A stretch of DNA of 41,359 bases from Macrostomum lignano (Eukaryota), in the NCBI GenBank assembly GCA_002269645.1, contig NIVC01002953.1, forward strand, positions 1-41,359. Direction: 5' to 3'. The position numbers and the translations under genes were made by a program. Below, in pieces: positions 4,925 to 34,608 of this stretch. Position 1 is the first letter of the stretch. Each line of letters starts with the position of its first letter. Below the pieces are notes generated by a model. It was not told the origin of the DNA. It searched no databases and was given only the letters and a program-made list of their open reading frames with translations.

Positions 4925-5720
4925 ATGGCAGCCATGTCTAGCACGTCCTCCTGGAGCCCCATTTCCGGTGCAGGTTTCCTGGCCGCCAATCAGCCGCAGT
5001 ACCAGTTTCCGGCTCAGCCGCATCACCTGCTGTTTTCACAGCACCAGCAGCATCCGTCAGCTGGGCCCTGTCTCTGCAGCCTGTGCGTGCAGCATCCCGG
5101 CGCGCTTCATCAGCTTCCTTTGCAGCAGCAGCACCCACTGCACCCTAGCCAGCATCATCAACAGCAGCAGCCTCATCACAACCAGCAGCATCAGCATCAG
5201 GCTTATAACTTCAGCAACTCAGCAAATATGAGCTCGCTGATGCAGCATCAGTCACAGAATTCAACTCCATCAGCCGCTGCAGCAGCCGCCGCCGCAGCTG
5301 CCGCCGCCGCAGCTGCAGCAGCCGCGAGCAGTAGCCTGGCGGGGCCGCTGACATCCTCGATGCACGCCGCCTGCGCTACAAACTGGTCGGCGGCGGCCGC
5401 GGCGCCGTTGCCGCTGACCTCGTCGGCATCAAGTCTCCAGTCTGCCAACGCCGCCCGCACCCAGCAGCAGTCGTCGGTGGCGGCATCGACAGGCACTTCG
5501 GCTTCTTCAGCAGCCGCGGCCGCGGTAGCCGCTGCCGCCGCCGCGGCTGCCTCCTCGCTGCCCAACCCGGTGGTGACGGGAGACCAGGCCTCCTCCGACG
5601 AGGCCCTGTCGCCGCCGCACCAAGACGATCCGATGGACGACGTGATGGACGTTCGCGAGGCGACCCGGCTGCAGCAGGAGATGATCAAATCGTGGCGGCA
5701 GAAGCGACGGGTCAGCTGTG
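4925..5720 (+). CDS. Cdx: Cdx/caudal ParaHox transcription factor, coding exon 1 (Q/H- and A/S-rich N-terminus)
   Basis: ATG at 4925. The exon ends ...KRRVSC-G at a GTGAGT donor (5721), phase 1, and joins the AG at 9473 to give GAG ATG AAA ACT CGG (EMKTR). Confidence 0.85.
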
Positions 5721-5879
5721 GTGAGTTGCGCTTTTGCTCTGGTGATGAGATGAGAAATGAGCATCGGCGAGTCAGGAGACTAGAGGTAAGAAAGTCGGAG
5801 ACCTAGAGATATGATTTAGGAGACTAGAGATAGTAAAGTTGGAGACTAGATACATGTATTAGATTCGGGAGACTACAGA

Positions 5880-6530
5880 AAGGAAACTAAAGATAGGAGT
5901 CGGGAGACTATAGATAAGAGAGTCAATCGGGAGACTAATATTAATATAGATAGGAGAGTCAATCGGGAGACTAGATATAGATAGGAGAGTCAATCGGGAG
6001 ACTAGATATAGATAGAAGAGTCAATCGGTAGACTAGATATAGATAGGAGAGTCAATCGGGAGACAGGATATAGATAGGAGAGTCAATCAAGAGACTAGAT
6101 ATAGATAGGAGAGTCAATCGGGAGACTAAAGATAGATAGGAGAGTCAATCGGGAGACTAAAGATAGATAGGAGAGTCAATCGGGAGACTAGATATAGATA
6201 GGAGAGTCAATCGGGAGACTAGATATAGATAGGAGAGTCAATCGGGAGACTAGATATAGATAGGAGAGTCAATCGGGAGACTAGATATAGATAGGAGAGT
6301 CAATCGGGAGACTAAAGATAGATAGGAGAGTCAATCGGGAGACTAAAGATAGATAGGAGAGTCAATCGGGAGACTAGATATAGATAGGAGAGTCAATCGG
6401 GAGACTAAAGATAGATAGCAGAGTCAATCGGGAGACTAGATATAGATTGGAGAGTCAATCGGGTGACTAGATTTGGATAGGAGAGTCAATCGGGAGACTA
6501 GATATAGATAGGAGAGTCAGGAGACTAAAG
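5880..6530. repeat. 31-bp minisatellite GAGACTAGATATAGATAGGAGAGTCAATCGG in Cdx intron 1
   Basis: About 19-20 tandem copies with a 31-nt period. Confidence 0.95.
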
Positions 6531-7419
6531 ATCGGTAGCGGATATAGGGGGAGGCGCACAGGGCGTGTCCCCCATCGAGTTTGATTTTGTTCCTAATACG
6601 CATATACATGTATCTTAGTAATAAGCGCCCCGTTCTAAATTTTCTCTATAAAATCGTTGATTTTCGTAATATCAACGAGAAACATTGGCGAGATCATGAT
6701 GATTCCTAGCCAGAGATATAAAGGTAAATCCAAGTCTCAGCAGGACTAAACTAGAAAACCTACGGACCGATTAATCCATTAGATTAACTTTTCCGGCGAA
6801 AAAAAGAAGCTACTTGAGCTTGAGGTCACAGGGAAACACAACACCATGCAGAAAGAATTTATGCAGATTGCGTCTCTAAGGGCATCCACTTATCTTGTCC
6901 TCCCACCAACCAATATCCTTAGGGATATGGGTACCAACTGAACTGATTAATTTATTACCGAACAGAAACTCCGTTTTCGGGTAATAATGCAATAAATATC
7001 CATACATCTAAGGCAAGTAGGTAGCGCGGCAATCATTGATATTGCACCAGCAGCTCTCTTAAAATCCGCCCACCGATCAACCGAGGACAAAGACGAAGTC
7101 GAACTCGGGAGTCAAGTTGATATCTTCTTGACTGGCATTATTAATGTTTTATGACCCTCCTTCGTGTTTGCTGCAGTCGTGCGCCGGCCCATAGCAACAA
7201 ACAATAAGCAGCCTTTAATCTATGAAAGCTATAAATGCTTTATTCACCTGCCATTGCAACTTCTGTGCAACCTCTGCGCGCATGCATCCGTAAGGTAGAA
7301 AAGAGTTTGCATAAAATTAAACAGGGACCGGTGCCCCTGAAACACGGCCGCCACTGCTAGCGCCCCTAAATAGAGATTTTTGGTGGGATCCCTAGGGGGC
7401 CTCTAAAACTAAAAAACAG

Positions 7420-7745
7420 CGATCCCAAAACCATGGATCCCTATAACCATGGATCCCCAAAGCTTGAAATCCAAAAAACCATGAATCTCAAAAACCATGG
7501 ATTCCCAAAAAATCATGGATCCCAAAAACCATGGATCCTCAAAACCCACAATCCAAAACCATGGATCCCAAAAACCATGGATCCTCAAAACCCACAATCC
7601 AAAACCATGGATCCCAAAAACTATGGATCCTCAAAACCCGCAATCCACCAAAACCATGGATCCGCAAAACCAGAAATCCAAAACCATGGATCCATAAAAC
7701 CATCGATCTCTAAAGCCATGGATCCCTTAAACCATGGATTCCAAA
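7420..7745. repeat. Irregular minisatellite built on AAAACCATGGATCC in Cdx intron 1
   Basis: Repeated CCATGGATCC core with variable A/C-rich spacers. Confidence 0.85.
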
Positions 7746-8339
7746 AACCAGAGTGCCATGAGAATCTGTATTTATGGATTCGGCTGTACTCTTGTCACAC
7801 TAACATTCGAGGTCAAATTAATCTTGGCTCCTTAAAGGAGGCGCAACAAAAATAAATAGTTTATAGAGCAATCGAAGCTGTTAGAACATTGGTTTCAAGT
7901 GTGACAACCCAGCCAGTTGTCACACAGATATAGCTGTCTCGTGTCTAAGCATAGATACAGTTTTACAGCGTAATCGCTTCAACATGGCATTCTTTCTATT
8001 GCTTTGTGCAAATACGCGCATCTGTTATACTCGTGGGATTCATAACAGTAGGAATTCAGCAAAATTATGAGCAGTACAACTCTGAATTCACGAAGCAGCA
8101 TTCCTTAAGTATAATGACATGACAATGACAAGTTCTTAGGGATGTTTTCGAGGGGTTCTAACCTCTTTTTCTTCTCTAACCAGGCAGTTTATTTTCTCTG
8201 TCTTTTTACGGTCACATTCTACCGAGCAGCTGCAGTTTAACACCTTTATTGCATTCCATTCCCACCTTCTGCATGGGTTCAATTCAAAATTGCTTTTTAT
8301 TTTTAAATATTGGCTATATAAGTATCTGTGATTTGTTTA

Positions 8340-9405
8340 TATTCACTACTGTCACTCTTATTTCACTGTCAATGCAGTTAATCTCACTCTTTATCTCACT
8401 GTCGCTACAGTTTATCTCACTCTTCTATCTCACTGTCGCTGCAGTTTATCTCACTCTTCTATCTCACTGTCACTGCAGTTTATCTCACTCTATCTCACTG
8501 TCACTGCAGTTTATCTCACTCTATCTCACTGTCACTGCAGTTTATCTCACTCTTCTATCTCACTGTCACTGCAGTTTATCTCACTCTATCTCACTGTCAC
8601 TGCAGTTTATCTCACTGTCGCTGCAGTTTATCTCACTCTATCTCACTGTCACTGCAGTTTATCTCACTCTATCTCACTGTCACTGCAGTTTATCTCACTC
8701 TATCTCACTGTCACTGCAGTTTATCTCACTCTATCTCACTGTCACTGCAGTTTATCTCACTGTCGCTGCAGTTTATCTCACTCTATCTCACTGTCACTGC
8801 AGTTTATCTCACTCTATCTCACTGTCACTGCAGTTTATCTCACTCTTCTATCTCACTGTCGCTGCAGTTTATCTCAATCTTCTATCTCACTGTCACTGCA
8901 GTTTATCTCAATCTTCTATCTCACTGTCACTGCAGTTTATCTCACTCTATTTCACTGTCACTGCAGTTTATCTCACTCTTCTATCTCACTGTCACTGCAG
9001 TTTATCTCACTCTATCTCACTGTCACTGCAGTTTATCTCACTCTATCTCACTGTCACTGCAGTTTATCTCACTGTCGCTGCAGTTTATCTCACTCTATCT
9101 CACTGTCACTGCAGTTTATCTCACTCTATCTCACTGTCACTGCAGTTTATCTCACTCTATCTCACTGTCACTGCAGTTTATCTCACTGTCGCTGCAGTTT
9201 ATCTCACTCTATCTCACTGTCACTGCAGTTTATCTCACTCTATCTCACTGTCACTGCAGTTTATCTCACTCTATCTCACTGTCACTGCAGTTTATCTCAC
9301 TCTTCTATCTCACTGTCGCTTCAGTTTATCTCACTCTTTTATCTCACTGTCGCTGCAGTTTATCTCACTCTATCTCACTGTCGCTGCAGTTTATCTCACT
9401 CTATG
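8340..9405. repeat. 31-bp minisatellite TCTATCTCACTGTCACTGCAGTTTATCTCAC with 21- and 34-bp variants, Cdx intron 1
   Basis: More than 30 tandem units. The 409-aa ORF here is a repeat artefact. Confidence 0.95.
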
Positions 9406-9472
9406 GTTTAATGGTGTTCTGGTAAGAACAATATACTATACGTTTCCTTGTGTTCCTTTGCTCGCCTTTCAG

Positions 9473-9621
9473 AGATGAAAACTCGGACTCAAGACAAATA
9501 CAGGCAGGTGTACAACTCCCAGCAGCGCTTTGAGCTGGAAAAGGAGTATCACTATCAGAAGTACATAACTTCGGCTAGAAAATCAGAATTGTCCGGCATT
9601 CTGCATTTGTCCGAGCGACAG
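9473..9621 (+). CDS. Cdx: Cdx coding exon 2 (homeodomain helices 1-2)
   Basis: TTTCAG acceptor; encodes [49 protein letters not shown], matching the Cdx signature KTRTKDKYRVVY...ELEKEFH; GTGAGT donor at 9622, phase 0. Confidence 0.95.
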
Positions 9622-9679
9622 GTGAGTCTATGCTCATAATTTTATTAGCTTTTGGGATAATAAAGTTTTAGGTTCATGC

Positions 9680-9836
9680 AGTTTCGGGTATTTGTCATGC
9701 AGTTTCGGGTATTTTTCATGCAGTTTCGGGTATTTTTCATGCAGTTTCGGGTGTTTGTCATGCAGTTTCGGGTGTTTGTCATGCAGTTTCGGGTGTTTGT
9801 CATGCAGTTTCGGGTATTTGTCATGCAGTTTCGGGT
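9680..9836. repeat. 21-bp minisatellite GTCATGCAGTTTCGGGT(A/G)TTT in Cdx intron 2
   Basis: About 8 copies. Confidence 0.9.
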
Positions 9837-11009
9837 TCAGAACGCGCCCTAAGTTTAAGCTCTTTAAGCTTGTCTAAGTTTTAATCAAAACAGTTGTGTT
9901 TACTGTGGAAGAAATAAGGCTTGGAAAGTTATCAAGATTTCGTACCTTGATTTTGTGAGCCGATCAAACTGAGCATAGAGTGACTCCTGCAGTGAGCACG
10001 CGGTTTGAGGCTATTGTATACACAATAGTTAGAGATCGCAAATCAAAATAAAATTTTCAACTCTGCATGGTAACAATGCTGACGCAACCCTCAACCTTTC
10101 CTTTCCTCTCCTCTCCCGAACTGAAACTCGAAAGCAGCGATCTGTAACGGGTTGTGACCGGGGGAATTTATTGTCTGTCTTTCACTGTGCATTTCTCGGA
10201 GCTTGACTCGCAAAACTTGACCCCTCCATCCATCCCATCCATTCATTCATTCATCCTCCACGCCTTGGATTTATAAGATCTGGTCAATTGGTATCTAAGC
10301 GGGCTCTATACTATATATTTGCCAGTGTGTCATATATACCTCTATTGTTCTTCTCCATACTGAAATTTATCTAAAAATCTTTGCAAGCGCGGTTATGGTT
10401 GACTAATTTCCCCGCTTGTCTATGTATGCAAACAACTATGCTCATGTTTAGTTATTTAGGCACATTCTATACTCTGACTAGAGTAACTTTTATAAGGCTA
10501 AGATTAGCTGCAGATCTGTCATGGTATATATTATTGTATATAATCCTATTGTTATATTATTGCTAGGGGAGATTGATGACGCAATCTTTTGACTTATTAA
10601 TTTGTAACTGTGCAAATTGGCTATGCATACCCATATAGGAATGGAAAGGGGGCGTGGTCTCACAGTCTGCGCTGCTGTGCTCACATATTCGGAGAATAAT
10701 TATCAGCAGAACAGTTTTTATCAGTTTCAATTATCAAACTTCTGATGCAGTTCTGATGCTTGTTGTTAAGCTGCATTGTTGCCGCGTTGCCCAACTAGAC
10801 TGTCATAAATCATGCTCCTGAAGCAAAGACAGGGTTTGTGTGGGCTTCAAATTCGTGAAGGCATTAAATTTTAAATTTGGTTCGATCATTTCGGAATTCT
10901 GTGCAGAGTATGCACCAAAATGTTCATGAGCTTCTTATTCTGAAAATTTTTGTCCCCGAGATCCCCACTGTCCTGCAATCCTTGAGATCCCGAATCCCAG
11001 CAGTCCCAA

Positions 11010-11627
11010 AACAGATGCCACAGTCCCAAAACATATCCCACAGTCCCAAAACAGATCCCACAGTCCCAATATAGATCCCTCCACAGTCCCAAAACAGATC
11101 CGACAGTTTCAAAACAGATCCCACAGTCCTAAAACAGATCCTATACAGTCCCAAAACAGATCCTATACAGTCCCAAAACAGATCCAACAGTCCTAAAACA
11201 GATCCCACAGTCCCAAAACAGATCCCACAGTTTCAAAACAGATCCTACAGTCCTAAAACAGATCCTATACAGTCCCAAAACAGATCCCACAGTCCCAAAA
11301 CAGATACTACAGTCCCAAAACAGATCCTATACAGTCCCAAAACAGATCCCACAGTCCCAAAAGAGATCCCACAGTCCCAAAACAGATCCCACAGTTTCAA
11401 AACAGATCCCACAGTCCCAAAACAGATCCGACAGTTTCAAAACAGATCCCACAGTCCTAAAACAGATCCTATACAGTCCCAAAACAGATCCCACGGTTTC
11501 AAAACAGATCCCACAGTCCCAAAACAGATCCTATACAGTCCAAAACAGATCCCACAGTCCCAAAACAGTTCCTATACAGTCCCAAAACAGATCCTATACA
11601 GTCCCAAAACAGATCCTACAGTCCCAG
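11010..11627. repeat. 20-22-bp minisatellite ACAGTCCCAAAACAGATCC(C/TAT) in Cdx intron 2
   Basis: About 30 degenerate copies. Confidence 0.9.
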
Positions 11628-12030
11628 CAGATCCCAGGTAGAATTCAAACAGATCCCAGGTAGAATTCAAACAGATCCCAGGTAGAATTCAAACAGATCC
11701 CAGGTAGAATTCAAACAGATCCCAGGTAGAATTCAAACAGATCCCAGGTAGAATTCAAACAGATCCCAGGTAGAATTCAAACAGATCCCAGGTAGAATTC
11801 AAACAGATCCCAGGTAGAATTCAAACAGATCCCAGGTAGAATTCAAACAGATCCCAGGTAGAATTCAAACAGATCCCAGGTAGAATTCAAACAGATCCCA
11901 GGTAGAATTCAAACAGATCCCAGGTAGAATTCAAACAGATCCCAGGTAGAATTCAAACAGATCCCAGGTAGAATTCAAACAGATCCCAGGTAGAATTCAA
12001 ACAGATCCCAGGTAGAATTCAAACAGATCC
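11628..12030. repeat. Perfect 22-bp minisatellite CAGATCCCAGGTAGAATTCAAA
   Basis: About 18 identical copies. The unit shares AACAGATCCCA with the adjacent older array. Confidence 0.95.
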
Positions 12031-12121
12031 CATTCAAGTGTACTAACATTTACTAAAAGGTCAAGTTTCCCTAACCAATAGAGCCATCCACTTTAAATAT
12101 CCCATATCCCATATCCCGCAG

Positions 12122-12550
12122 ATCAAGATCTGGTTTCAAAACCGTCGTGCCAAAGAGCGCCGACAGAAGAAGAGCAGCGGCGGCGGCGGCGGAGGTTCGA
12201 AGCCTTCAGCGGCGGCGGCTGCGGCCGCGGACATTTCGAGTGCTCACTCTGAGCAGGATTTCAGCAACATCTGCCACAACAACAACAATAATAACAATAA
12301 CAGCGGCAGCCTCAAGGACGGTGCGGTGCAGCTGGGCAGTCCGTCATCAATGTCCAATCTGTTATTATCTGAAGCGGTTGCTGCATCGCATCTGATGCCT
12401 CATCAGCAGCTGCAGCAGCAGCATCATCAACTGCAGCATCAACTGCAGCAGCAACAGCAGCATCACTTAACTCAGCATCACATGATGTTACAGCATCAGC
12501 AGCAGCATCTTCACGCTTCATCAACAGAAGTGAAGCTGGAGCACGCTTAA
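12122..12550 (+). CDS. Cdx: Cdx coding exon 3 (homeodomain helix 3 plus G/A/N/Q-rich tail)
   Basis: CCCGCAG acceptor; reads IKIWFQNRRAKERRQKK...VKLEHA to TAA at 12548-12550. The three exons total 1374 nt = 457 aa plus stop. The intron at homeodomain position 44/45 is the conserved site. Confidence 0.93.
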   Translation: MKIWFQNRRAKERRQKKSSGGGGGGSKPSAAAAAAADISSAHSEQDFSNICHNNNNNNNNSGSLKDGAVQLGSPSSMSNLLLSEAVAASHLMPHQQLQQQHHQLQHQLQQQQQHHLTQHHMMLQHQQQHLHASSTEVKLEHA

Positions 12551-13399
12551 CAATATATATTTTCAACAATTTAATCAAAGCATTTTACCCTGTCCCTTTA
12601 TCAATTTTAAACGCTTCGAAGTTCAACAACTTTCGAGGGAATTCTTTCCTACAAAAAGGGATTTAAAAAAATCTTTACCGCCTTGTTGCACGATAAAATG
12701 CAATGTGAGTTTCTGTTGTCATGTTTAGCTGTACTGTTATCATCACTAAAAATATGATTTGTTTGTACAGATCATAAAAGCCTGAATGCCAGGCCCACAT
12801 GCATATTACATAATTATTTTGTTTATTTTCTTTTGCGCTAGAGCACTAATTCTCTTTCCTTTAATAATGCTTCTTTTTCAGCAGTAAGGAGTGTCATATT
12901 AACTATATGCTCGATTAATATACATTAATGTGCCAACATTATTTAATTTAGTGAAGATTCAAGAAATATTCGAAAATTTGGTTTGACCATGCATGGTTAT
13001 TGCCACCTTCTGTGTCTTGTGTGTGTGTGCATGGGAATCTGATTAAAATCCACTCACTGTGCTCGCCTATAATTATGAATATTATAGTCCACTCCTTCTC
13101 TCCTGATGCAACTCCGACAACTCGCCTTTTTACTCCTCGACTATTGCATTGTTTCTGTAATCTGTCCTAAGGCAAAGCTATTCGGCATATATTATATATT
13201 GAATAATATAGAAACTCTGTTTAATTTCATACAAATAATAATATTGTTTGTTACTGTTTTATAAACTTTAGTTTAGTTTTGTTATTAAAGCTAAACTTTG
13301 AATTGTTTGAAATAATACTGACTGATTTATATTTAAGATTTTGTATTTTTTCCTGCGCGTTTATTTTAGACGTGAAATGCGATTAATAGAGAGGTGAGT

Positions 13400-14290
13400 G
13401 ATGAGGGAGGGTAAGATGCAGAGGAATGGTAGGGTGAGATGCAGAGGGAGGGTAGGGTGAGATGCAGAGGAATGGGAGGGTAAGATGCAGAGGAATGGTA
13501 GGGTGAGATGCAGAGGGAGGGTAGGGTGAGATGCAGAGGAATGGTAGGGTGAGATGCAGAGGGAGGGTAGGGTGAGATGCAGAGGAATGGTAGGGTGAGA
13601 TGCAGAGGAATGGTAGGGTGAGATGCAGAGGGAGGGTAGGGTGAGATGCAGAGGAATGGTAGGGTGAGATGCAGAGGAATGGTAGGGTGAGATGCAGAGG
13701 GAGGGTAGGGTGAGATGCAGAGGGATGGTAGGGTGAGATGCAGAGAGATGGTAGGGTGAGATGCAGAGAGATGGTAGGGCGAGATGCAGAGGGATGCTAG
13801 GATGAGATGCAGAGGGATGCTAGGATGAGATGCAGAGGGATGGGAGATGGAGATGCAGATGGATGCTAGGATGAGATACAGAGGGATGCTAGGATGAGAT
13901 GCAGAGGGATGGGAGATGGAGATGCAGATGGATGCTAGGATGAGATGCAGAGGGATGCTAGGATGAGATGCAGAGGGATGGGAGATGGAGATGCAGATGG
14001 ATGCTAGGATGAGATACAGAAGGATAGTATAGGGTGAGATGCAGAGGGATGCTAGGATGAGATACAGAGGGATGCTAGGATGAGATGCAGAGGGATGGTA
14101 GAGTGAGACGCATAGAGATGCAGAGGGAGGCCAGGGTGAGATGCAGAAGGATGGGAGATGGAGATGCAGATGGATGCTAGGATGAGATACAGAGGGATGC
14201 TAGGATGAGATGCAGAGGGATGGGAGAGTGAGACGCATAGAGATGCAGAGGGAGGCCAGGGTGAGATGCAGGATGGGAGATGCAGATGCA
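13400..14290. repeat. Purine-rich 23-bp minisatellite GGGTGAGATGCAGAGG(A/G)A(T/G)GGTA and variants
   Basis: About 35-40 tandem units whose variants change progressively along the array. Confidence 0.92.
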
Positions 14291-14424
14291 AGGAGTACTG
14301 TTGCGTGTTCTCAATACTCGTGCATCATGTAATCTTGTGCATTATTGATACAGCTTGTCGTGTACATGAATTTTGTAGTTTTAAACTCTGGTAGTTTTGT
14401 ATCTCTACAACACTTATGGATTTA

Positions 14425-14478
14425 GCGGGTGTCGGCTGCCCCCCCCCCCCCCAGGGAAAAACCTTGGATACGACACTG
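14425..14478. mobile_element. Possible isolated right end of a hAT-type MITE
   Basis: A poly-C tract followed by GGATACGACACTG resembles the right end (CCTACGCCACTG) of the 19018-19209 element. No left end was found. Confidence 0.35.
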
Positions 14479-17251
14479 CACTAAACTAATGTACTCGTAA
14501 GAACTGCATATAGTAACTACAGCAGTTACAACTGCACAGACACTGCACCTGCTTAAGTCTGGTATCGCGCACTTCTGAAGGAAACATTAGAAAGTTAATA
14601 AACTTGATGCCGCTGAATTATAGTCCGAGCATAATATTTATATTATCTGCATCTGCACTCACAATTTACACGACCATTGATCATTGAAAATGGACCCACT
14701 TTGGTAACTGGTTGGCGGTTGAAAATGCATTGTATTTATTACAGCACCGTTTTACGCCGCGCTAAAATTCTAATTCTTTAAACAACTTCAAACGAAGCCG
14801 CGCCTTTGGCCTTTTTCCGCCACCTACCCAGTACCCCACCCGTTTTTACCGCCAACCAAACTAATTTAATAATATAGCCTGATTAAGTGTGACAAAGCGA
14901 GCAATGTGTTGTATTTATATTATAAGTTACGTTACTGTTTTATAATAATTACAGTAGATGGCTCCCAGACTCCAGAGATAGAGAGCACAGCACATGGCAC
15001 AATCCGGTCACAATTAAGATCTTCATAATTTACTCACTCAAAAAGCCGAATTAAAATTTGACTTTGTGAGGCCAGGTGAGACTGAGAGAAGAGTTAAATA
15101 AGGTTTGCTCAGCTCAGACTCTCAGATGCTTTTTCTTAATTACTTAATTAACAAAAGCCATGTATATGGAGTGCTAAATATGTACCATTGGTGGTTTATA
15201 CTTTAAAATCTCTCAATACGATCTAGTGATTAGTGACAATTTTAAATCCGAATTCGAAAGCGATTTACCTCGTCATCAAGTTTGAAGTATTCTAATTTAC
15301 AGTTTTTTTTTCAGGACGGTTTGGTTGCTTTATTCATTTTTGTTCTAATTAGATAAAGGTAAATTAAAATTTAATTACATAATAAGGTAGTCTTTCATTC
15401 ATTAATTTCACACTGATATTCGGACTGTCACGTTGCTTTGCTTTTAATAGTTTACGTAGAAACTTTACGCCGCTTTTAATAATGAGAATGATGATGACTC
15501 GAGAAAGGGATAAAGCTGAAAAAAGTTATCGTTTCAACCTTAACTGAGTTTATTTTTACTTTCCGAGTGGGTAAGGGGTGGGTTGGGGTTCGGGGTTGCG
15601 CCTTTTAGTTGAGGGAGGCAATAACTTTACCAGTGGGTCGGGACGGGGAAGGTCATAAAAGTCAACCAAACCCCCCCCCCACACACACACATACGGTCGA
15701 GCCCCACCCCCCCGCGTCCGGGAGAGTGGGGTTGGTTTTCGTTTCCGAAAAAAACTGGGATAAGAGGGGCCATTGCCAGTGGGTGGCCCATACTAATGGC
15801 CAGTAAGTAGTAGGCGAAGTGTGGGTTGTATTGTGTTGTGTTGTGTCTGTGTAAAAGTAAATTGTTAGTTCGGAGCTCGGTCCGAGAGACTAGACTAAAG
15901 AAGACAAGGACACTTGTCCTTTTCCGAACGAACATGTTGTTGGTTTTGAATTTTGAATTTGGTTTTGAATCTAATCCTACAGAAATGATCAACTACTAGC
16001 TACTACCTCCTATTAATCTCAAATTGACGACAATCACGTATATGATACAGAATTTTTATGTTCAATGTAAATTAAGATGTAAATGTTTACATTTTACACG
16101 ATTTTTATCGTGTTTTGTTAGTTAGAAAAGAATTTGGCAGAAAGAACAAAAACACAATGCACCAGAAATCCTCTGTACTGTATGAGAAAGAATCAACTAA
16201 GATCTTGTCTTGTTTGAGATCTAAGTCTGATCTTGCCTTGTTGCTATATTGCTATACGTCTCATGTTTGTGTCTTTCAGACGCAAAGTCTGCATGTTTTG
16301 AGTCTGATTCTGATATGGCGGTGTGCCAATCCAATCCGGGGAGTCGTGCCGACTACTTTTTATTTCTACTTCTAAAACTTTGCCTGTGTATTTTGAGTTG
16401 GGAATGTGGGATCCGGCCTCTTTTATTCATATTTGGTCGTTTACAACAATGTGATGTGAAATGATACAATGTAGAGACAATGATCGACTCAAATCAATGA
16501 ATGGCAAAAAATAGAATAGAAATGAAGGAAGGGATCAGCTCAGCTCTCGACTCTCAGTTCTCCCATCGCACCAACTCATGTCCCACACGCCACACGTGAT
16601 TTGATTGAAAATTTGAATCGATTAAAAAAGCGTTAAATTTAAACAAAAATGCTATTATTTAAACCATTTCCACTTGTGAGACTGTTTTGAATTGAGTTGA
16701 GAAGAGTCGCAAAATTTTAATTGTTTTTTGCGTGTTTAGAAAGAGCCAGTGCAATGCTGTATGTAATTGCATATGCAGAGAGAGTGGCATTGCATTCGAA
16801 TTCAAGTGGTATTAGGGGGCATTTTGTGGTGCAATATTAGTGTGCATCGGCGCGTATGAAGTATTGTATTATATATACATATAGTAGGATAAAGTATTAT
16901 GGCCACTGGACAATTTTCACAATACCGGCCGCCGGCCACTGTTCTCAATTCAACCAATTTAGGGGGCCCGCCCATATAAGCCCACCCGACCCGCCAACCG
17001 CCCCTCTGCGCGCAAGGCTCCATTATAACCTCTCCCCGCCCGACCAAAGCTAACTTCTCTTTGATCTTTGCCGCCACACAGGCGCGCGCGGCTGGACGGG
17101 GCCAACGCACCAATGCAATTGCAGATTTGCAGTGCTTTTTTACGCTACGCCACCACACCAGACAGGGACTACTAGATTTCACTACTATCTGGAGTGGAAA
17201 CTGTCTGTTCCATTTTAAATTAGGGATAGAATTCTAAAAACGGTATTTTTA

Positions 17252-20866: not shown

Positions 20867-21062
20867 TGTAGGGTTGCGTTTGGTTTGGGCCGTCGGGGTG
20901 GGAGCTGCTCTATTAGTATATGTACTTGCATCTCGTTTTCTTCTCTGTACATGCCCACCACCCCAGTTGGGTGAGTCACTTTAATCGATCTATCATCGCT
21001 GACTATTTAATCGCTCGTCAAAATACACTTCGTAAACTTACTCTAAATTCTCGGCTCTTACA
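20867..21062 (+). mobile_element. 5' LTR (196 bp) of a second Ty3/Gypsy element
   Basis: Starts TGTA and ends TACA. It interrupts the RT fragment and is followed after 1 nt by a PBS and gag. Confidence 0.75.
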
Positions 21063-21063
21063 T

Positions 21064-21074
21064 TGGTGGCAGCG
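21064..21074 (+). promoter_or_regulatory. Primer-binding site TGGTGGCAGCG
   Basis: Lies immediately after the LTR. It is complementary to the 3' end of eukaryotic tRNA-Leu(AAG)-type tRNAs (...CGCTGCCACCA). Confidence 0.7.
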
Positions 21075-21096
21075 AGAACCCAGTGCAAGTGCACTC

Positions 21097-21680
21097 ATGG
21101 CCCTGAACACCCTTCTACTGCCAAAGTTCAGTGGAACAGACGGCACTGACGTGAGAAAGTGGCTGCGCATCTTTGAGGAATTTGCCAACGATGCGAAATG
21201 GGACGACGCGACCTCAGCGTCGAAGGTGAAGCTGCTGCTCACGGGAGAAGCCCAACTGGTCGTCTGGGACCTGGCCGAGACAAGACAAAAGAGTTTTAAA
21301 AGTATAAAGGAGGACCTCACAAAGTTTTATGGAGGCGAAGCCGACAGCTTTAAGGCCATGAGCGACTTCTACGCGAAAAAACGTGGAGATGCCGAGACAC
21401 TGCGTGAGCTCTGCTTTAACCTGAAGCTGCTACACCAGAAAGCCAGACCGGAGGACTCAATTGCTCAGCGAGACCGAGATGTGCGCTTCAAGCTTCTGCA
21501 GCTGCTCAAGGCCGACATTCGTGACAACCTGCTTAAGGCAGAGGACGCAGAGACCTGCAGCCTGGAGACTCTGCTGCAGCGGGCGGCTCGGCTGGAGGAG
21601 CTGGCTGGGCGACAGTCGGTGGCGGCAGTCGCAGCCGTCAGCGCTACATCATCGGCAGAACCAAGCGAGGCCCAGCGCCC
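21097..21680 (+). mobile_element. Ty3/Gypsy gag (capsid), 3'-truncated
   Basis: ATG at 21097; LPKFSG...WLRIFEEFA...KW...LLLTGEAQ...F...E...ELCFNLKLL is the retrotransposon gag capsid pattern. No zinc knuckle or protease follows. Confidence 0.82.
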
Positions 21681-22095
21681 CCTAGAGACGGTTGCCAAGG
21701 TAAACACGCCAAGGCCGGAGCCAATATCCAATAGCCAGTGATTTTGATCCGTTTCATCTTTGCCGCCGAGGAGTTCGAGCACCGTCTCAACAGCTTCGTA
21801 GCCCTTGTCAGCGCCCGACAATAATCGTCGGGAGGTCTCGTCCTCGCTAGAGTAAGTCGCCACTGTCAGAGCCAGCGACTCGAGGTGGGCGGACTGCTCG
21901 CTAGCCAACTTGGGAAAGGCGGTTAAGCGTTTGATATAGCACAAATTTCTCGTGTGCCTGGGTCGGTAGCATACCCGGTCCCAGGTGGCTTGGTCGTACT
22001 GCTCCGATTTGACCTCCCAGCATTTGTCTAAAGGTTTGAGTTGCTTTTTCGGTTTCCGGAGCATATGTTTAGCGGTTTTAGATACTGCAGGTTTT
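21680..22095 (-). pseudogene. FkbM-like SAM methyltransferase exon 2, truncated by the retroelement block
   Basis: TTGCAG acceptor at 22096-22097, phase 2, matching the exon 1 donor. It ends ...HWLLDIGSGLGVFTLATVSRG, a SAM-binding motif I. Confidence 0.7.
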
Positions 22096-26039: not shown

Positions 26040-29000
26040 CGATCAGGATTAGTCACAAATACCATCAGGATTAATCTCTATCAGAGTTAGACATAATGAT
26101 TATCGGGTTTAGTCACAATGATTATCGGGATTAAGTAGACACAAAGATTATTAGGGTTAGACACAATTTTTGGGATTAGTCACAATGATTATCGCGATTA
26201 GTCACAATGGTTATCGGGATTAGTCACAATGGTTATCGGGATTAGACACAATGGTTATCGGGATTAGTCACAATGGTTATCGGGATTAGACACTATGGTT
26301 ATCGGGATTAGTCACAATGGTTATCGGGATTAGTCACAATGGTTATCGGGATTAGTCACAATGGTTAGCGGGATTAGACACAATGGTTATCGGGATTAGT
26401 CACAATGGTTATCGTGATTAGACACAATGGTTATCGGGATTAGACACAATGGTTATCGGGATTAGACACAATGGTTATCGGGATTAGACACAATGGTTAT
26501 CGGGATTAGACACAATGGTTATCGGGATTAGACACTATGATTATCGGGTTTAGTCACAATGATTATCGTGATTAAGTAGACACAAAGATTATTAGGGTTA
26601 GACACAATTTTTGGGATTAGTCACAATGATTATCGCGATTAGTCACAATGGTTATCGGGATTAGTCACAATGGTTATCGGGATTAGTCACAATGGTTAGC
26701 GGGATTAGACACAATGGTTATCGGGATTAGTCACAATGGTTATCGGGATTAGACACTATTGTTATCGGGATTTAGACACTATGGTTATCGGGATTAGACA
26801 CAATGGTTATCGGGATTAGACACTATGGTTATCGGGATTAGACACAATGGTTATCGGGATTAGACACTATGGTTATCGGGATTAGACACAATGGTTATCG
26901 GGATTAGACACTATGGTTATCGGGATTTAGACACTATGGTTATCGGGATTAGTCACAATGGTTATCGGGATTAGACACTATTGTTATCGGGATTTAGACA
27001 CTATGGTTATCGTGATTAGACACAATGGTTATCGGGATTAGACACAATGGTTATCGTGATTAGACACAATGGTTATCGGGATTAGACACAATGGTTATCG
27101 GGATTAGACACAATGGTTATCGGGATTAGACACAATGGTTATCGGGATTAGACACAATGGTTATCGGGATTAGACACAATGGTTATCGGGATTAGACACA
27201 ATGGTTATCGGGATTAGACACAATGGTTATCGGGATTAGTCACTATGGTTATCGGGATTAGACACTATGGTTATCGGGATTAGACACAATGGTTATCGGG
27301 ATTAGACACAATGGTTATCGGGATTAGACACAATGGTTATCGGGATTAGACACTATGGTTATCGGGATTAGACACAATGGTTATCGGGATTAGACACAAT
27401 GGTTATCGGGATTAGACACAATGGTTATCGGGATTAGACACAATGGTTATCGGGATTAGACACTATGGTTATCGGGATTAGACACTATGGTTATCGGGAT
27501 TAGACACAATGGTTATCGGGATTAGACACAATGGTTATCGGGATTAGACACAATGGTTATCGGGATTAGACACTATGGTTATCGGGATTAGACACAATGG
27601 TTATCGGGATTAGACACTATGGTTATCGGGATTAGACACTATGGTTATCGGGATTAGACACAATGGTTATCGTGATTAGACACAATGGTTATCGGGATTA
27701 GACACAATGGTTATCGGGATTAGACACAATGGTTATCGGGATTAGACACAATGGTTATCGGGATTAGACACAATGGTTATCGGGATTAGACACAATGGTT
27801 ATCGGGATTAGACACAATGGTTATCGGGATTAGACACAATGGTTATCGGGATTAGACACAATGGTTATCGGGATTAGTCACTATGGTTATCGGGATTAGA
27901 CACAATGGTTATCGGGATTAGACACTATGGTTATCGGGATTAGACACAATGGTTATCGGGATTTAGACACTATGGTTATCGGGATTAGACACAATGGTTA
28001 TCGGGATTAGACACAATGGTTATCGGGATTAGACACTATGGTTATCGGGATTAGTCACAATGGTTATCGGGATTAGACACAATGGTTATCGGGATTAGAC
28101 ACAATGGTTATCGGGATTAGACACTATGGTTATCGGGATTAGACACAATGGTTATCGGGATTAGACACTATGGTTATCGGGATTAGACACTATGGTTATC
28201 GGGATTAGACACAATGGTTATCGGGATTAGACACAATGGTTATCGGGATTAGACACAATGGTTATCGGGATTAGACACAATGGTTATCGGGATTAGACAC
28301 TATGGTTATCGGGATTAGACACAATGGTTATCGGGATTTAGACACTATGGTTATCGGGATTAGACACAATGGTTATCGGGATTAGACACAATGGTTATCG
28401 GGATTAGACACTATGGTTATCGGGATTAGTCACAATGGTTATCGGGATTAGACACTATGGTTATCGGGATTAGACACAATGGTTATCGGGATTAGACACT
28501 ATGGTTATCGGGATTAGACACAATGGTTATCGGGATTAGACACAATGGTTATCGGGATTAGACACAATGGTTATCGGGATTAGACACAATGGTTATCGGG
28601 ATTAGACACTATGGTTATCGGGATTAGACACAATGGTTATCGGGATTAGACACTATGGTTATCGGGATTAGACACTATGGTTATCGGGATTAGACACAAT
28701 GGTTATCGGGATTAGACACAATGGTTATCGGGATTAGACACAATGGTTATCGGGATTAGACACTATGGTTATCTGGATTAGACACAATGGTTATCGGGAT
28801 TAGACACAATGGTTATCGGGATTAGACACTATGGTTATCGGGATTAGACACAATGGTTATCGGGATTAGACACAATGGTTATCGGGATTAGACACAATGG
28901 TTATCGGGATTAGACACTATGGTTATCGGGATTAGACACAATGGTTATCGGGATTAGACACAATGGTTATCGGGATTAGACACTATGGTTATCGGGATTA

Positions 29001-31150
29001 GACACAATGGTTATCGGGATTAGACACTATGGTTATCGGGATTAGACACAATGGTTATCGGGATTAGACACTATGGTTATCGGGATTAGACACAATGGTT
29101 ATCGGGATTAGACACTATGGTTATCGGGATTAGACACTATGGTTATCGGGATTAGACACAATGGTTATCGGGATTAGACACAATGGTTATCGGGATTAGA
29201 CACAATGGTTATCGGGATTAGACACTATGGTTATCGGGATTAGACACAATGGTTATCGGGATTAGACACAATGGTTATCGGGATTAGACACTATGGTTAT
29301 CGGGATTAGACACAATGGTTATCGGGATTAGACACAATGGTTATCGGGATTAGACACAATGGTTATCGGGATTAGACACTATGGTTATCGGATTAGACAC
29401 AATGGTTATCGGGATTAGACACAATGGTTATCGGGATTAGACACTATGGTTATCGGGATTAGTCACAATGGTTATCGGGATTAGACACTATGGTTATCGG
29501 GATTAGACACAATGGTTATCGGGATTAGACACTATGGTTATCGGGATTAGACACAATGGTTATCGGGATTAGTCACAATGATTATCAGGATTAGTCACAA
29601 TGATTATCGGGATTTATAGTCACTATGGTTATCGGGATTAGTCACAATGGTTATCGGGATTAGTCACAATGATTATCAGGATTAGTCACAATGATTATCA
29701 GGATTAGTCACAATGATTATCGGGATTTATAGTCACTATGGTTATCGGGATTAGTCACAATGGTTATCGGGATTAGTCACAATGATTATCAGGATTAGTC
29801 ACAATGATTATCGGGATTAGTCACAATGATTATCAGGATTAGTCACAATGATTATCAGGATTAGTCACAATGATTATCAGGATTAGTCACAATGGTTATC
29901 GGGATTAGACACAATGGTTATCGGGATTAGACACAATGGTTATCGGGATTAGACACAATGGTTATCGGGATTAGACACAATGGTTATCGGGATTAGACAC
30001 TATGGTTATCGGGATTAGACACTATGGTTATCGGGATTAGTCACAATGGTTATCGGGATTAGACACAATGGTTATCGGGATTAGACACAATGGTTATCGG
30101 GATTAGACACAATGGTTATCGGGATTAGACACAATGGTTATCGGGATTAGACACAATGGTTATCGGGATTAGACACAATGGTTATCGGATTAGACACAAT
30201 GGTTATCGGGATTAGACACAATGGTTATCGGGATTAGACACAATGGTTATCGGGATTAGACACAATGGTTATCGGGATTAGACACAATGGTTATCGGGAT
30301 TAGACACAATGGTTATCGGGATTAGACACAATGGTTATCGGGATTAGACACTATGGTTATCGGGATTTAGACACTATTGTTATCGGGATTAGACACAATG
30401 GTTATCGGGATTAGACACAATGGTTATCGGGATTAGACACTATGGTTATCGGGATTTAGACACTATTGTTATCGGGATTAGTCACAATGATTATCAGGAT
30501 TAGTCACAATGATTATCAGGATTAGTCACAATGGTTATCGGGATTAGACACAATGGTTATCGGGATTAGACACAATGGTTATCGGGATTAGACACTATGG
30601 TTATCGGGATTTAGACACTATTGTTATCGGGATTAGACACAATGGTTATCGGGATTAGACACAATGGTTATCGGGATTAGACACTATGGTTATCGGGATT
30701 TAGACACTATTGTTATCGGGATTAGTCACAATGATTATCAGGATTAGTCACAATGATTATCAGGATTAGTCACAATGATTATCAGGATTAGTCACAATGA
30801 TTATCGGGATTTATAGTCACTATGGTTATCGGGATTAGTCACAATGGTTATCGGGATTAGTCACAATGATTATCAGGATTAGTCACAATGATTATCAGGA
30901 TTAGTCACAATGATTATCGGGATTTATAGTCACTATGGTTATCGGGATTAGTCACAATGGTTATCGGGATTAGTCACAATGATTATCAGGATTAGTCACA
31001 ATGATTATCGGGATTAGTCACAATGATTATCAGGATTAGTCACAATGATTATCAGGATTAGTCACAATGATTATCAGGATTAGTCACAATGGTTATCGGG
31101 ATTAGTCACAATGGTTATCGGGATTAGTCACAATGGTTATCGGGAATAGT
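26040..31150. repeat. 5.1-kb 22-bp satellite GACAC(A/T)ATGGTTATCGGGATTA
   Basis: About 230 head-to-tail copies with no spacers. The edge units are GTCACAATGATTATCAGGATTA variants. Confidence 0.98.
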
Positions 31151-31409
31151 CAAAAGTTACTGGGCTTTATTCGTCCGGTTGATTTGATTGGATGCCTTTT
31201 CTTCAGCCCATTTACATGTAGATATACCCAGCTGTGTTCAGTAAGTTACTTCAGTAGCCACGGCACACACAACTGGAACAGACGCTAACAACAAGGAAAT
31301 CGGTGAGATATTCAATACTTTTTGGTTTGAAAAAACTGTTAGCAGTTTTTTATAATTGTCATAATTAATCTGACTGATTCTCTCGATAAAATCAGTTTTA
31401 ATTAGTTTA

Positions 31410-32398
31410 GCACTTCTGACACACAGTTTAGTGCTTCTGACACAGTTTAGTGCTTCTGACACACAGTTTAGTGCTTCTGACACACAGTTTACTGCTTCTG
31501 ACACACAGTTTAGTGCTTCTGACACACACAGTTTAGTGCTTCTGACACACAGTTTAGTGCTTCTGACACACAGTTTAGTGCTTCTGACCCACACAGTTTA
31601 GTGCTTCTGACACACAGTTTACTGCTTCTGACACACAGTTTACTGCTTCTGACACACAGTTTAGTGCTTCTGACACACAGTTTAGTGCTTCTGACACACA
31701 GTTTACTGCTTCTGACACACAGTTTAGTGCTTCTGACACACACAGTTTAGTGCTTCTGACACACAGTTTACTGCTTCTGACACACAGTTTAGTGCTTCTG
31801 ACACACACAGTTTAGTGCTTCTGACACACAGTTTACTGCTTCTGACACACAGTTTACTGCTTCTGACACACACAGTTTAGTGCTTCTTACACACAGTTTA
31901 GTGCTTCTGACACACAGTTTACTGCTTCTGACACACAGTTTAGTGCTTCTGACACACAGTTTAGTGCTTCTGACACACACAGTTTAGTGCTTCTGACACA
32001 CAGTTTAGTGCTTCTGACACAGTTTAGTGCTTCTGACACACAGTTTAGTGCTTCTGACACACAGTTTAGTGCTTCTGACACACAGTTTAGTGCTTCTGAC
32101 ACACACAGTTTAGTGCTTCTGACACACAGTTTACTGCTTCTGACACACAGTTTACTGCTTCTGACACACACAGTTTACTGCTTCTGACACACAGTTTACT
32201 GCTTCTGACACACAGTTTAGTGCTTCTGACACACAGTTTAGTGCTTCTGACACACAGTTTAGTGCTTCTGACCCACACAGTTTAGTGCTTCTGACACACA
32301 GTTTACTGCTTCTGACACACAGTTTACTGCTTCTGACACACAGTTTACTGCTTCTGACACACAGTTTACTGCTTCTGACACACAGTTTAGTGCTTCTG
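31410..32398. repeat. 21-bp minisatellite CTGACACACAGTTTA(G/C)TGCTT with 19- and 23-bp CA-length variants
   Basis: About 46 copies. The array ends abruptly at the AGTAGT start of the Polinton-like element. Confidence 0.96.
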
Positions 32399-32670
32399 AG
32401 TAGTATATAAAAAGACGCTTCTAGACCCAGAGCACTTTTTTAATGACCGTTTTAAGGGTCTAGAGGGGGGACACGGGGGGTAAATAAAAAAAACACATCT
32501 AAACACCATTAATACATCTAATCACCCATAATCACCCCTAACAATAAAAATCACTTCCAAACACTTCCAAACACTCCCCAACACCCCCCTCGCGTCCCCC
32601 CTCTTAAGACCTTACAAACGGTCATTAAAATAAGGTCTGATCTAGAAGCGTCTTTTTATATACTACTACT
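32399..32670. repeat. 272-bp terminal quasi-palindrome (inverted arms of about 82-88 bp around a G-free loop)
   Basis: AGTAGTATATAAAAAGACGCTTCTAGA (32399-32425) is perfectly complementary to TCTAGAAGCGTCTTTTTATATACTACT (32641-32667). The inner arms pair imperfectly. Confidence 0.93.
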
Positions 32671-32752
32671 CTATAACCCCTTGCCCGCGCCGCAGGCGCG
32701 AAGGGTCGGAAAGAATAGAAGCTATTTATAGTCAGCTCACCTACCCACCCAA

Positions 32753-32850
32753 CATTCCATTTAGACCAGATTTTAGACCAAACAAAACTAGACTATCGTT
32801 TTGGTTTTCGTTTTCAAAAATTTGGTCTAAAATCTGGTCTAAATGGAATG
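32753..32850. repeat. Perfect 30-bp inverted repeat with a 38-nt loop upstream of the first viral ORF
   Basis: CATTCCATTTAGACCAGATTTTAGACCAAA (32753-32782) pairs with TTTGGTCTAAAATCTGGTCTAAATGGAATG (32821-32850). Confidence 0.95.
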
Positions 32851-32888
32851 CAGACAATCTTTTTCTGTTACTAAAAATAGAACAAAAA

Positions 32889-33287
32889 ATGACACACGTT
32901 ACACATATGCAAAATCTGAATGAATTGCAGGTAGGAGACCCAGTTGAATACCGAGGTGAGGGGCTTTTTGATGTGGTTGGAACAGCAGCAAATTTTGTTA
33001 AAGACAATATGGGGCTTATAGGGCAAGCTGGCTCTGCAGCAGGCTCTATAACAAATGCTGTAAAAGGAGGAATTGAAGCAGCTAGAGCGGCAGAAGAACT
33101 AAAGAAATTGAGAGATTTTAACGACACCCTCTCACAAATAAATGCAATAAAAGATTTAAAGCTGGCACAAGCCGCACAACCAACAGAAACCCCCACGAAA
33201 AGCGCACCAATAAGTAATAAAGATATTCAGGATTTTAATAAAATGTTAAATACTATTAAAGGTGGAAAAGGATTAAAGAAATTTTAA
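32889..33287 (+). CDS. 132-aa putative virion protein; amphipathic helix after a GxG site, reminiscent of adenovirus pVI
   Basis: RGEG-LFDVVGTAANFVKDNMGLIG, then a G/A-rich stretch and coiled coil, and a C-terminal KGGKG-LKKF. Confidence 0.55.
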   Translation: MTHVTHMQNLNELQVGDPVEYRGEGLFDVVGTAANFVKDNMGLIGQAGSAAGSITNAVKGGIEAARAAEELKKLRDFNDTLSQINAIKDLKLAQAAQPTETPTKSAPISNKDIQDFNKMLNTIKGGKGLKKF

Positions 33288-33297
33288 CAATATAAAA

Positions 33298-34283
33298 ATG
33301 GACACAGATAACGACCGCTTATATTTTATAGGAGAAATTGTAGATACTTTAGATCTAGATGATAATAAACATAGCCACACAATGTTAAAAAGATTGGATC
33401 GATTAGGTAAAAAGTTTGACTACGACATCGATACATTTAAACTCGCAGCAAAATATGCACAAGAAGGAAGGCCAATATCCTTTAAGAATCGCGGCAGAAA
33501 TTATAGGTTGACAGACTCCGATGTGAAATTTTTAATGGAGACTCACACTAAAAAGGACGGCGGATTACTACCCATTCTACCGCTTCTTTTAGGACTTGGT
33601 GCAGCTGGAGCAGTCGGTTTAGCCGGAAAAAGAATTCATGATAATGTAAAACAGCTAGGAGAGTTAAGAGCGAAACAGGGGGGAATCTTACCCCTTGCAG
33701 CTTTGCTCCCAATAATTTTTGCAGGAATTGGAGCAGCTGGAGGAGTTGCTGGCGGAGCAGCTGGAATTGCAAAAGCAGTAAATGACAAAAAAGCTGCGGA
33801 CGAAAAAGCTAAAAGAGAGGCCGAATTTCAAAGACAGCAAATAACGCAGGACGCACAATTTAAACAAAAACTTATCGATACAATTAATAGTAGTTCAGCA
33901 ACAGCTGAGCAAAAAAGAAATGCAGAAGCTAGGTTATCAGCTGGAAAAGGTTAATACTAAAAGGATCAAATCATGGCAATGGTTTACTTTTACAAGGAAC
34001 AACCCAAGGAAGTGGAGTTGTAGCAGATAAACTACATGAATTTGGTCAAACTTTAGAAAAAACGGGTGAGAAAGCTAAAGGATTTTTTGACAATATTGGA
34101 TCCAATTTTAGGCCAGCAGTTCAGAAGATTTTTACTAAGTTAGGAAAAGATTTTAATATCATTGAAAAACACGACGGAAGCGGATTATATCTCGAAATGA
34201 GACCAAAAGCAGGTTCAGGAATTTTCTTAAATTCAAACGTTATGGGCAATGGATTGCTATTACCAAAAGCAGATCTCGAATAG
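33298..34283 (+). CDS. Core-protein precursor with two adenovirus pX-like hydrophobic peptides and repeated GxG-L sites; one frameshift at about 33951
   Basis: KDGG-LLPILPLLLGLGAAGAVG and KQGG-ILPLAALLPIIFAGIGAAGGVAGG resemble pX (GG-ILPLLIPLIAAAIGA). The -1 frame from 33951 stays open to TAG at 34281 with GNG-L, GSG-V, GSG-L, GSG-I and GNG-L sites. Confidence 0.68.
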
Positions 34284-34367
34284 GCTCCTGGGGGGAGGGT
34301 CTGGACACCAAAAACACAAAATTAAAAAATCAATAATTCAAACATTATATAAATTTTATTCTATAAA

Positions 34368-34558
34368 ATGGAAGCAATTTTAGCTCAAATCGACAACCCG
34401 AACTTAGAGCACAATTAATAGCTCAAATCGATGCACAACGAATTGCCGATAGGGCTGAAATAGAAGCAAGAATTAGGGCAGAAAATGAGATACGTTTAGA
34501 AAGACAATTAAATGATATTAATAACCCCAACCACAAGGACAAAATGGAGCTGAAGTAA
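34368..34558 (+). CDS. Small coiled-coil protein of about 63 aa, one frameshift near 34400
   Basis: TATAAAATG start; reads MEAILAQIDNP/ELRAQLIAQIDAQRIADRAEIEARIRAENEIRLERQL. Confidence 0.45.
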
Positions 34559-34608
34559 TATATATAGATATAGATATAAATACAAATTATAAAGAATATT
34601 TTAAACAA

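Follow-up and report, generated by a model that had tools for sequence, protein, structure and literature searches.

A 272-bp palindromic tip with two opposed end signals at the left end of a Macrostomum lignano Polinton/Maverick

The locus described here raises the question of why a mobile element should carry its end signal twice at one end, in opposite orientations. We know of no demonstration of Polinton excision and copying, and the standing model requires that a single strand of 15-20 kb bring its two ends together; a conserved fold-back tip would be a small, defined cis element that could separate local protein priming from self-priming by simple observations on end polarity, snap-back forms and protein caps. 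In a 41,359-nt stretch of Macrostomum lignano DNA (contig NIVC01002953.1 of assembly GCA_002269645.1, referred to here as the window), a sequence-only reading had noted two opposed AGTAGT termini 272 bp apart, and proposed for them a terminal hairpin or second origin, a mini non-autonomous genome or a relic end-to-end junction, with a fold-back chimera as the artefact to be considered. We show here that a Polinton/Maverick has its left end at this site and that the 272-bp unit forms the palindromic tip of that end, with a second, opposed end signal built into it.

The terminal unit and the element behind it

The outer arms of the unit (32399-32425 and 32641-32667) are complementary at all 27 of 27 positions, and the terminal 27-mer occurs at exactly two sites in the window, two matches being found in none of 100 shuffles. 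Both the perfect pairing of the outer 27 nt and the divergence of the inner arms are thereby confirmed as first read: complementarity is 77% between 32438-32480 and 32588-32630, and a gapped alignment of the arms beyond the first 27 columns matches at 46 of 60 columns, the others being 8 mismatches and 6 gaps (perfect 27-bp tip versus drifting remainder of the arms, Fisher p 0.004). The 272-nt unit folds at -65.0 kcal/mol on the + strand and -66.4 kcal/mol on the - strand, with z scores of -14.2 and -13.5 respectively, and none of 200 shuffles folds equally well. The span of 272 bp holds for the opposed termini but not for the pairing, which ceases to be perfect at 32667 (269 bp) and leaves the ACT at 32668-32670 as an extra, unpaired triplet. 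A comparison with Rfam gave 17 matches, all of them generic miRNA hairpins far under the gathering threshold.

The loop has no G on the + strand, as had been stated. The G-free run is exactly 111 nt long (32481-32591) and is the second-longest in the window, behind a host CT microsatellite; the chance of such a run over the element is about 5e-6. It shows autocorrelation at a period of 10 (0.62, z 5.3, none of 2000 shuffles), and the segment 32481-32587 folds at 0.0 kcal/mol on both strands. The G-runs proposed for its complement stand only in part, in that TTAGGGG is present but occurs a single time, as one unit of the decayed 10-nt repeat, and with a lone TTAGGGG inside a decayed 10-mer array we reject a telomere-repeat reading of the loop. 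We likewise reject the suggested G-quadruplex: neither strand of the unit contains a G4 pattern, even with loops of up to 12 nt allowed, and its G4-enabled minimum-energy fold is without any G4. Two of the unit's long G-runs sit in the stem.

To the left of 32399 lies animal DNA that is rich in tandem repeats and carries a homeodomain exon, and to the right are AT-rich intronless ORFs; the part of the element inside the window is about 9 kb, its left end only. By its testable features the element is a Polinton/Maverick. It encodes, in a frameshifted gene, a pPolB with N-terminal terminal-protein and vOTU domains, for which the fold matches are weak, and AGTAGT stands at the true host junction at 32399, with mixed flanks in two of four sequencing runs among the matches listed. 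In the relatives G001:C67 and G001:C9, a 6-bp TSD together with a TIR at both ends is present. Integrase, packaging ATPase, protease and capsid genes were not detected within the ~9 kb of element in the window.

The pPolB matches the Pfam families Endonuclease_7 (E 7.5e-7) and DNA_pol_B_2 (E 5.7e-4), and its fold matches, to Y-family polymerases and OTU domains, are weak, none of them at E <= 0.001. In a model of the native frame of its N-terminal part (mean pLDDT 83) there are four strands plus two helices, and a loop that lies between helix 2 and strand 4 reads Gly-Ser-Gly. As modelled, the window pPolB has a terminal-protein fold with Ser at the linking position, both the fold and the position of the linking residue being as in the accessible text of PMC11071308.

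A TATAAA(A)ATG-like motif lies right before element ORFs (window 33280-33300 and 34350-34370), and likewise before ORFs of several relatives. In viral contigs, exact end-motif scans gave two chance matches within unrelated contigs and none for the inner-junction motif, and a single-sequence pPolB scan gave no match. Neither did blastn of the element end against phage records; a sigma-70 scan, whose model is not applicable here, stayed at chance level.

Table 1. Positions of the features of the element end and its surroundings in the window
Feature	Position	Strand	Evidence
Host 21-bp minisatellite receiving the insertion; last 6 bases (32393-32398) are the predicted TSD	31404..32398		Tandem Repeats Finder array 31404-32399
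Outer end motif AGTAGT and 27-bp perfectly paired origin core (putative); true element terminus	32399..32425	+	Pairing, 27-mer count, loose ends
Outer imperfect arm	32426..32481	+	46/60 columns match the inner arm
G-free loop: A-run, then decayed C/A-rich repeat of 10-nt period; unstructured on both strands	32481..32591		Composition, autocorrelation, folding
Inner arm, repeating the terminus in inverted orientation, without mismatch at 32641-32667, ending ACTACT plus one more ACT	32583..32670	-	Pairing, folds, gapped alignment
Small GC-rich stem with GCA triloop, just inside the inner terminus	32678..32705	+	-11.2 kcal/mol, z -2.4, 5/200 shuffles as good; weak
Polymorphic segment of 152 bp, containing a further hairpin whose 30-bp arms (32753-32782 and 32821-32850) pair perfectly; missing in many copies	32706..32857		z -12.4, joints
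Candidate inner TIR boundary, 10 bp before the first ORF	32878..32879		Two X5 contigs depart from the window here; weak
ORF for a pX / adenovirus mu-like core protein, typical of Polintons/adintoviruses	33298..33954	+	Pfam Adeno_PX E 0.0026, under curated cut-off; PF05829 in 10/31 homologs
Protein-primed DNA polymerase B (pPolB), several frameshifted pieces in this copy; terminal-protein-like and OTU-like N-terminal domains, Endo VII-like insert	34552..38354	+	Pfam, model

Copies, flanks and the insertion point

Most of the stretch is contained in 20 of 24 listed runs (8 studies), and four runs from three studies (X5, X9, X15 and X20) were compared as contigs. All 30 bins of the stretch are covered in each of the four. 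Among the loose ends listed, those with mixed flanks meet 32399 in X9 (4 contigs, agreement 0.53) and in X5 (2 contigs, agreement 0.58), and because different flanks join there, 32399 marks an actual element end at several loci. The unit is accordingly the genuine left terminus of a Polinton/Maverick that is endogenous and present in multiple copies. Over the unit, depth is comparable to that of the interior; depth gives no copy number and does not separate one unit per element from two, but it gives no sign of a large free population of 272-bp units.

In a diverged subfamily, seen as an X20 loose end at 32685, ACTACTACT still runs on into the TATAACCCC motif; contigs of low depth from X15 and X20 connect the arms through different loop sequence, and in one contig each of X9 and X15 a G-free, loop-like sequence runs straight into 32670 without the inner arm. 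Because loop-like sequence directly joins 32670 in these two contigs, some copies may lack the inner arm; G-free 30-mers make up 0.2% of the host flank. At a few positions of the unit the majority of the depth shows another letter than the window, and the window copy thus has private changes or errors there.

Joints that skip the 152-bp segment run from 32705 to 32858 in three of the four runs and from 32707 to 32860 in all four. The segment has 2-bp microhomology at its bounds, and its arms repeat a TAGACC motif that is also found in the terminal arm. The TIRs of relatives end about 50-70 bp inside the hairpin, and a candidate for the inner boundary in the window is given in Table 1.

These observations bear on readings in which a headless Polinton is preceded by an assembly chimera, by the relic of an end-to-end junction or by a mini-element of 272 bp that exists free; these we regard as largely refuted and consider extremely improbable. 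The unit does have both a left and a right end motif, and could in principle be moved by an integrase, and no contig among those listed spans the whole of it. However, a mini non-autonomous genome is not supported, given the lack of a 6-bp TSD around 32399-32670 and of any large depth excess, and no loose end follows 32667 or 32670 among those listed. Two joined ends would place ACTACT and AGTAGT back to back, whereas the motifs here point outward. A chimera is at odds both with the coverage of every bin in four runs from three studies and with the diverged subfamily, which retains the inner-terminus junction, and relatives carry the unit at both ends.

The insertion lies in a host minisatellite, and in X15 and X20 contigs the repeat of this minisatellite runs on beyond 32399. 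Two neighbouring host arrays precede the insertion, at 26087-31149 (22-bp x229) and 31404-32399 (21-bp x47), and the relative G001:C67 is likewise inserted in a simple repeat. Elsewhere on the host side, window positions 4919-5806 and 12047-12550 are exons of a homeobox gene with long Ala/Gln tracts, the introns of which are filled by minisatellites; a piece at 3009-3536 (- strand) resembles a mariner-type transposase (HTH match), and an ORF at 20917-21741 (+ strand) is retrotransposon gag-like by eye only.

The same end design in other Polintons

Profile scans gave 169 pPolB loci from three public collections, with some contigs counted twice, and a gapped scan of 1.45 Mb for opposed end motifs found 10 matches, compared with 2 in one shuffle. 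The match in L132 was dropped as lying inside the polymerase region, and one in L134 (position 2045) as lying 1.3 kb outside the element; those retained are in the window, L016, L145, L134, L162 and L176, with two in L177. L176 and L177 are not independent finds, because they were fetched by their likeness to L134. The shared layout consists of host DNA, end motif, arm, loop, and an inverted arm ending in the opposed motif, followed by the genes. The hairpin z score is -5.5 in L016, which is among the nearest pPolB relatives of the window (53% identity over the C-terminal piece), -10.3 in L145, and -26 in L134, which together with L162, L176 and L177 makes up an ACACAC-ended family. L085 probably shares the design, with a 257-nt AGTAAT-ended hairpin (z -13.9). 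A single end is in view in L016, L085, L145 and L162, with an estimated boundary, and searches for the second end of L145 and of L162 did not find it. We give no frequency of hairpin ends, because most of the 169 loci show no element end. Local inverted repeats of at least 17 bp are absent from 385 kb of pol coding sequence.

Two relatives are seen end to end. G001:C67, in an AAT microsatellite and with matching 6-bp flanks, carries a 159-nt ACACAC hairpin at each end, inside a 226-bp TIR; in G001:C9 (291-15427), which is flanked by an exact 6-bp TSD, both 221-bp TIRs contain an AGTAGT hairpin of 174 nt. In both elements the TSDs lie outside the outer motif. The proposal of a terminal hairpin with a second copy of the origin is thus borne out as a structure, which recurs in other Polintons and is present at both ends of these two complete relatives; its function as an origin is putative. 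This recurrent design of Polinton ends is real, and we think it very likely that the hairpin belongs to the terminal repeat throughout a lineage, probably with a counterpart at the right end, and is no accident of the window copy.

The arms of these hairpins have a fixed polarity. A one-base bulge is found on the inner arm at five of five ACACAC ends, and the two ends of G001:C9 differ at 1 position when compared unflipped and at 15 when flipped, such that flip/flop is seen neither at the five ACACAC ends nor at both C9 ends, although these numbers are small. Among four diverged ACACAC hairpins there are double-sided changes at 20 of 48 pairs. Covarying arms also arise through template switching, without any function.

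The hairpin could also be a non-functional by-product, produced when copy-back or template switching at the terminus gave a second arm, with further rounds of switching preserving the likeness between the arms. Accidental annealing is named as an alternative in the accessible text of a preprint on virophages of the protist Halocafeteria seosinensis (bioRxiv 10.64898/2026.07.28.741278), the variant without the inner arm occurs in two of the four runs, and plain-TIR Polintons exist: L013 has a plain AGTAGT TIR without a hairpin, and the hairpin is therefore not needed in general. On a quick tree built on 74 of 114 distinct rows, in which the nine-row starred clade with the window also takes in L016 and L085, elements with hairpin ends are interspersed among plain ones (3 changes, no clustering). 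We nonetheless think a by-product quite unlikely, since elements with two different end motifs and two polymerase types share the design, which complete elements carry at both ends, and since the one-base asymmetry of the arms is kept across four diverged subfamilies, where plain homogenisation would erase it.

The integrase, ATPase and capsid of G001:C9, in which integrase and ATPase are both present, are 86-96% alike to those of the ACACAC family, but its polymerase differs (22% to that of L145) and so does its end sequence. Because G001:C9 shares integrase, ATPase and capsid with that family and yet differs in both polymerase and end, the end follows the polymerase. A hairpin or cruciform that acts as an excision or integration signal, with the host-element junction set at a stem base where the integrase, the Endo VII-like insert of the polymerase or a host structure-specific nuclease would cut, would agree with the stem base being the junction in every case seen and with the Endo VII-like domain within the window pPolB. 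We find this very unlikely, however, as G001:C9 has hairpins and yet no Endo VII domain in its polymerase (Pfam), and near-identical integrases (89-96%) are paired with two different hairpin sequences.

Several other features of these loci were recorded. Compared with L134, the element at 291-15427 of L187 (G001:C9) shows a polymerase-module swap with both ends replaced, and at 169-464 of the same locus two Polinton ends stand 8 bp apart, with an ACACAC-type and an AGTAGT-type hairpin, one element having inserted beside the end of the other. L134 contains a 4.7-kb tandem duplication within the element (5679-15150) that covers the C-terminal part of the polymerase, the integrase and small ORFs. 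Directly repeated GCGAG / CTCGC words occur at the hairpin tips of L134 (3435-3455), L176 (1625-1650), L177 (225-245) and L016 (200-215), with none in the window unit; such repeats can form sheared G-A pairs, on one strand only. Palindromes upstream of pol in L005, L019, L036, L046, L053 and L137 have no tie to an element end and were not counted; large imperfect ones lie upstream of pPolB in L005 (4657-4840, between divergent ORFs), L046 (2719-3242) and L019 (656-1025). Polinton-bearing, apparently eukaryotic contigs are filed in bacterial/archaeal MAGs (L119-L171, 53 loci).

Priming at a folded end and known systems

The best explanation, and one to which we give about an even chance of being correct, is that the tip forms a panhandle locally and so restores a duplex origin at which the terminal protein can prime. 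A single strand would be displaced or excised from the element, and its 3' end (...ACTACT) would fold onto the inner copy 270 nt away, restoring a blunt duplex origin locally in place of pairing with the far end 15-20 kb off. The terminal-protein domain of pPolB would then prime at the rebuilt origin, and the polymerase would copy round the loop, unwind the stem and proceed into the element. Such a panhandle predicts a fixed orientation of the outer and inner arms and perfect pairing needed only in the terminal origin core, and it would favour a loop unable to compete for pairing; terminal-protein priming at a local origin would thus account for a tip that pairs perfectly, inner arms that drift, a loop left open and a polarity that is fixed, with no nickase needed. 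The true terminus at several loci, the lack of structure in the loop on both strands, and the recurrence of the design at both ends of complete relatives are in its favour. Against it stand the armless contigs of X9 and X15, the plain TIR of L013, and the long unpaired loop of the window, which contrasts with the tighter stems in most relatives.

The folded 3'-OH could instead be extended directly. In this parvovirus-like self-priming, the polymerase would extend the folded-back 3'-OH to give a snap-back duplex closed at one end, which would then be nicked or re-initiated from the open end. The geometry permits this: paired to the inner copy, the 3' ACTACT is flush and has template ahead of it. 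On the other hand, flip/flop is absent at all five ACACAC ends and both C9 ends, no strand-changing joint is found among the joints listed (15 of 17), an indirect measure for the window's own family, and the element has a predicted terminal-protein domain. Fixed polarity is itself compatible with self-priming, since in some parvoviruses the left end keeps to a single orientation. The preprint on H. seosinensis virophages and PLVs (bioRxiv 10.64898/2026.07.28.741278) proposes this model, with parvovirus hairpins as the analogy, for their terminal palindromes, which it ties mostly to non-pPolB elements. We consider self-priming the main rival, though an unlikely one.

The local panhandle can be extended to a wider reading, which we put forward tentatively and would not expect to hold in full. 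A subset of animal Polintons with the canonical terminal-protein polymerase would have hairpin telomeres in both TIRs and two priming routes, one by protein at duplex ends and one by fold-back of displaced strands; the end sequence would travel with the polymerase module, and failed resolution would give rise to giant palindromic Maverick-ended satellites. If true, this would link Polintons mechanistically to hairpin-ended viruses. Parvovirus terminal hairpins are imperfect palindromes of 100-300 nt in which the 3' end could self-prime, but the window element differs in that no Rep/NS1 is seen in the ~9 kb in view, a predicted terminal-protein domain is present, and no flip/flop was found in its relatives.

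The element shares with Polinton/Maverick (adintovirus) elements that have (AGT)2//(ACT)2 TIRs its AGTAGT terminus, a pPolB near the end and a pX-like gene, with a 6-bp TSD in the complete relatives, and (AGT)2 is the commonest vertebrate Maverick end motif according to the accessible text of PMC8097293. In that of PMC4196379 a single strand pairs its two TIRs into a 'racket', and only the end-to-end racket is described; here, in contrast, the end motif occurs twice per end, in opposed orientations, and one end can form a duplex alone. The statement that standard models have one origin per end therefore holds for Polinton summaries, as far as their accessible text goes, but terminal palindromes in Polinton relatives were already described in the 2026 preprint. 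The panhandle proposed for adenovirus and PRD1 would likewise restore a duplex origin from a single strand to allow protein priming, although it joins the two ends of the entire genome, whereas one end of the window element can pair locally; even for PRD1 and adenovirus, panhandles are without direct evidence in the accessible text of the source (PMC11886824). Casposons are self-synthesising like Polintons and some of their TIRs have palindromes inside, but they are prokaryotic, use a Cas1 integrase, and have internal palindromes rather than an opposed terminus, according to the accessible text of PMC4046053.

The main texts of PMC8097293, 10.1101/2023.08.22.554363, 10.1101/2024.01.15.575659 and a coral survey (10.1101/2023.10.06.561300) make no mention of a hairpin or palindrome, and those of PMC8502044 and PMC8363768 make no mention of a hairpin. 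The coral survey requires a 15 kb spacer between TIRs, and surveys that require a long TIR spacer thus do not look for end hairpins. In the accessible parts of the literature surveyed we found no description of opposed end motifs in animal pPolB Polintons, and Repbase entries or supplements may already show such ends.

The idea of a terminal palindrome has a recent precedent in protist relatives. In the accessible text of bioRxiv 10.64898/2026.07.28.741278, endogenous virophages of H. seosinensis (subtypes 1, 2, 5 and 6) and PLV subtype 4 have palindromes in their TIRs beside the TSDs, mostly with non-pPolB replication genes; hairpin priming is proposed and a global survey called for. The likeness lies in a palindrome at the tip of the TIR next to the TSD and in the proposal of fold-back replication. 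That case concerns a protist host and, in the example figured, palindromes of 52 nt, whereas ours concerns animal Polintons with a terminal-protein pPolB and units of 104-272 nt, with 100 nt of unpaired loop in the window; because of this loop, a palindrome search with a gap limit of 10 would miss the window unit. What is new here, relative to the accessible parts of the literature surveyed, is the occurrence of the design in animal pPolB Polintons and, in one module swap, an end sequence that goes with the polymerase. Animal Polintons with pPolB thereby join the protist virophages and PLVs, mostly without pPolB, for which such a feature has just been described.
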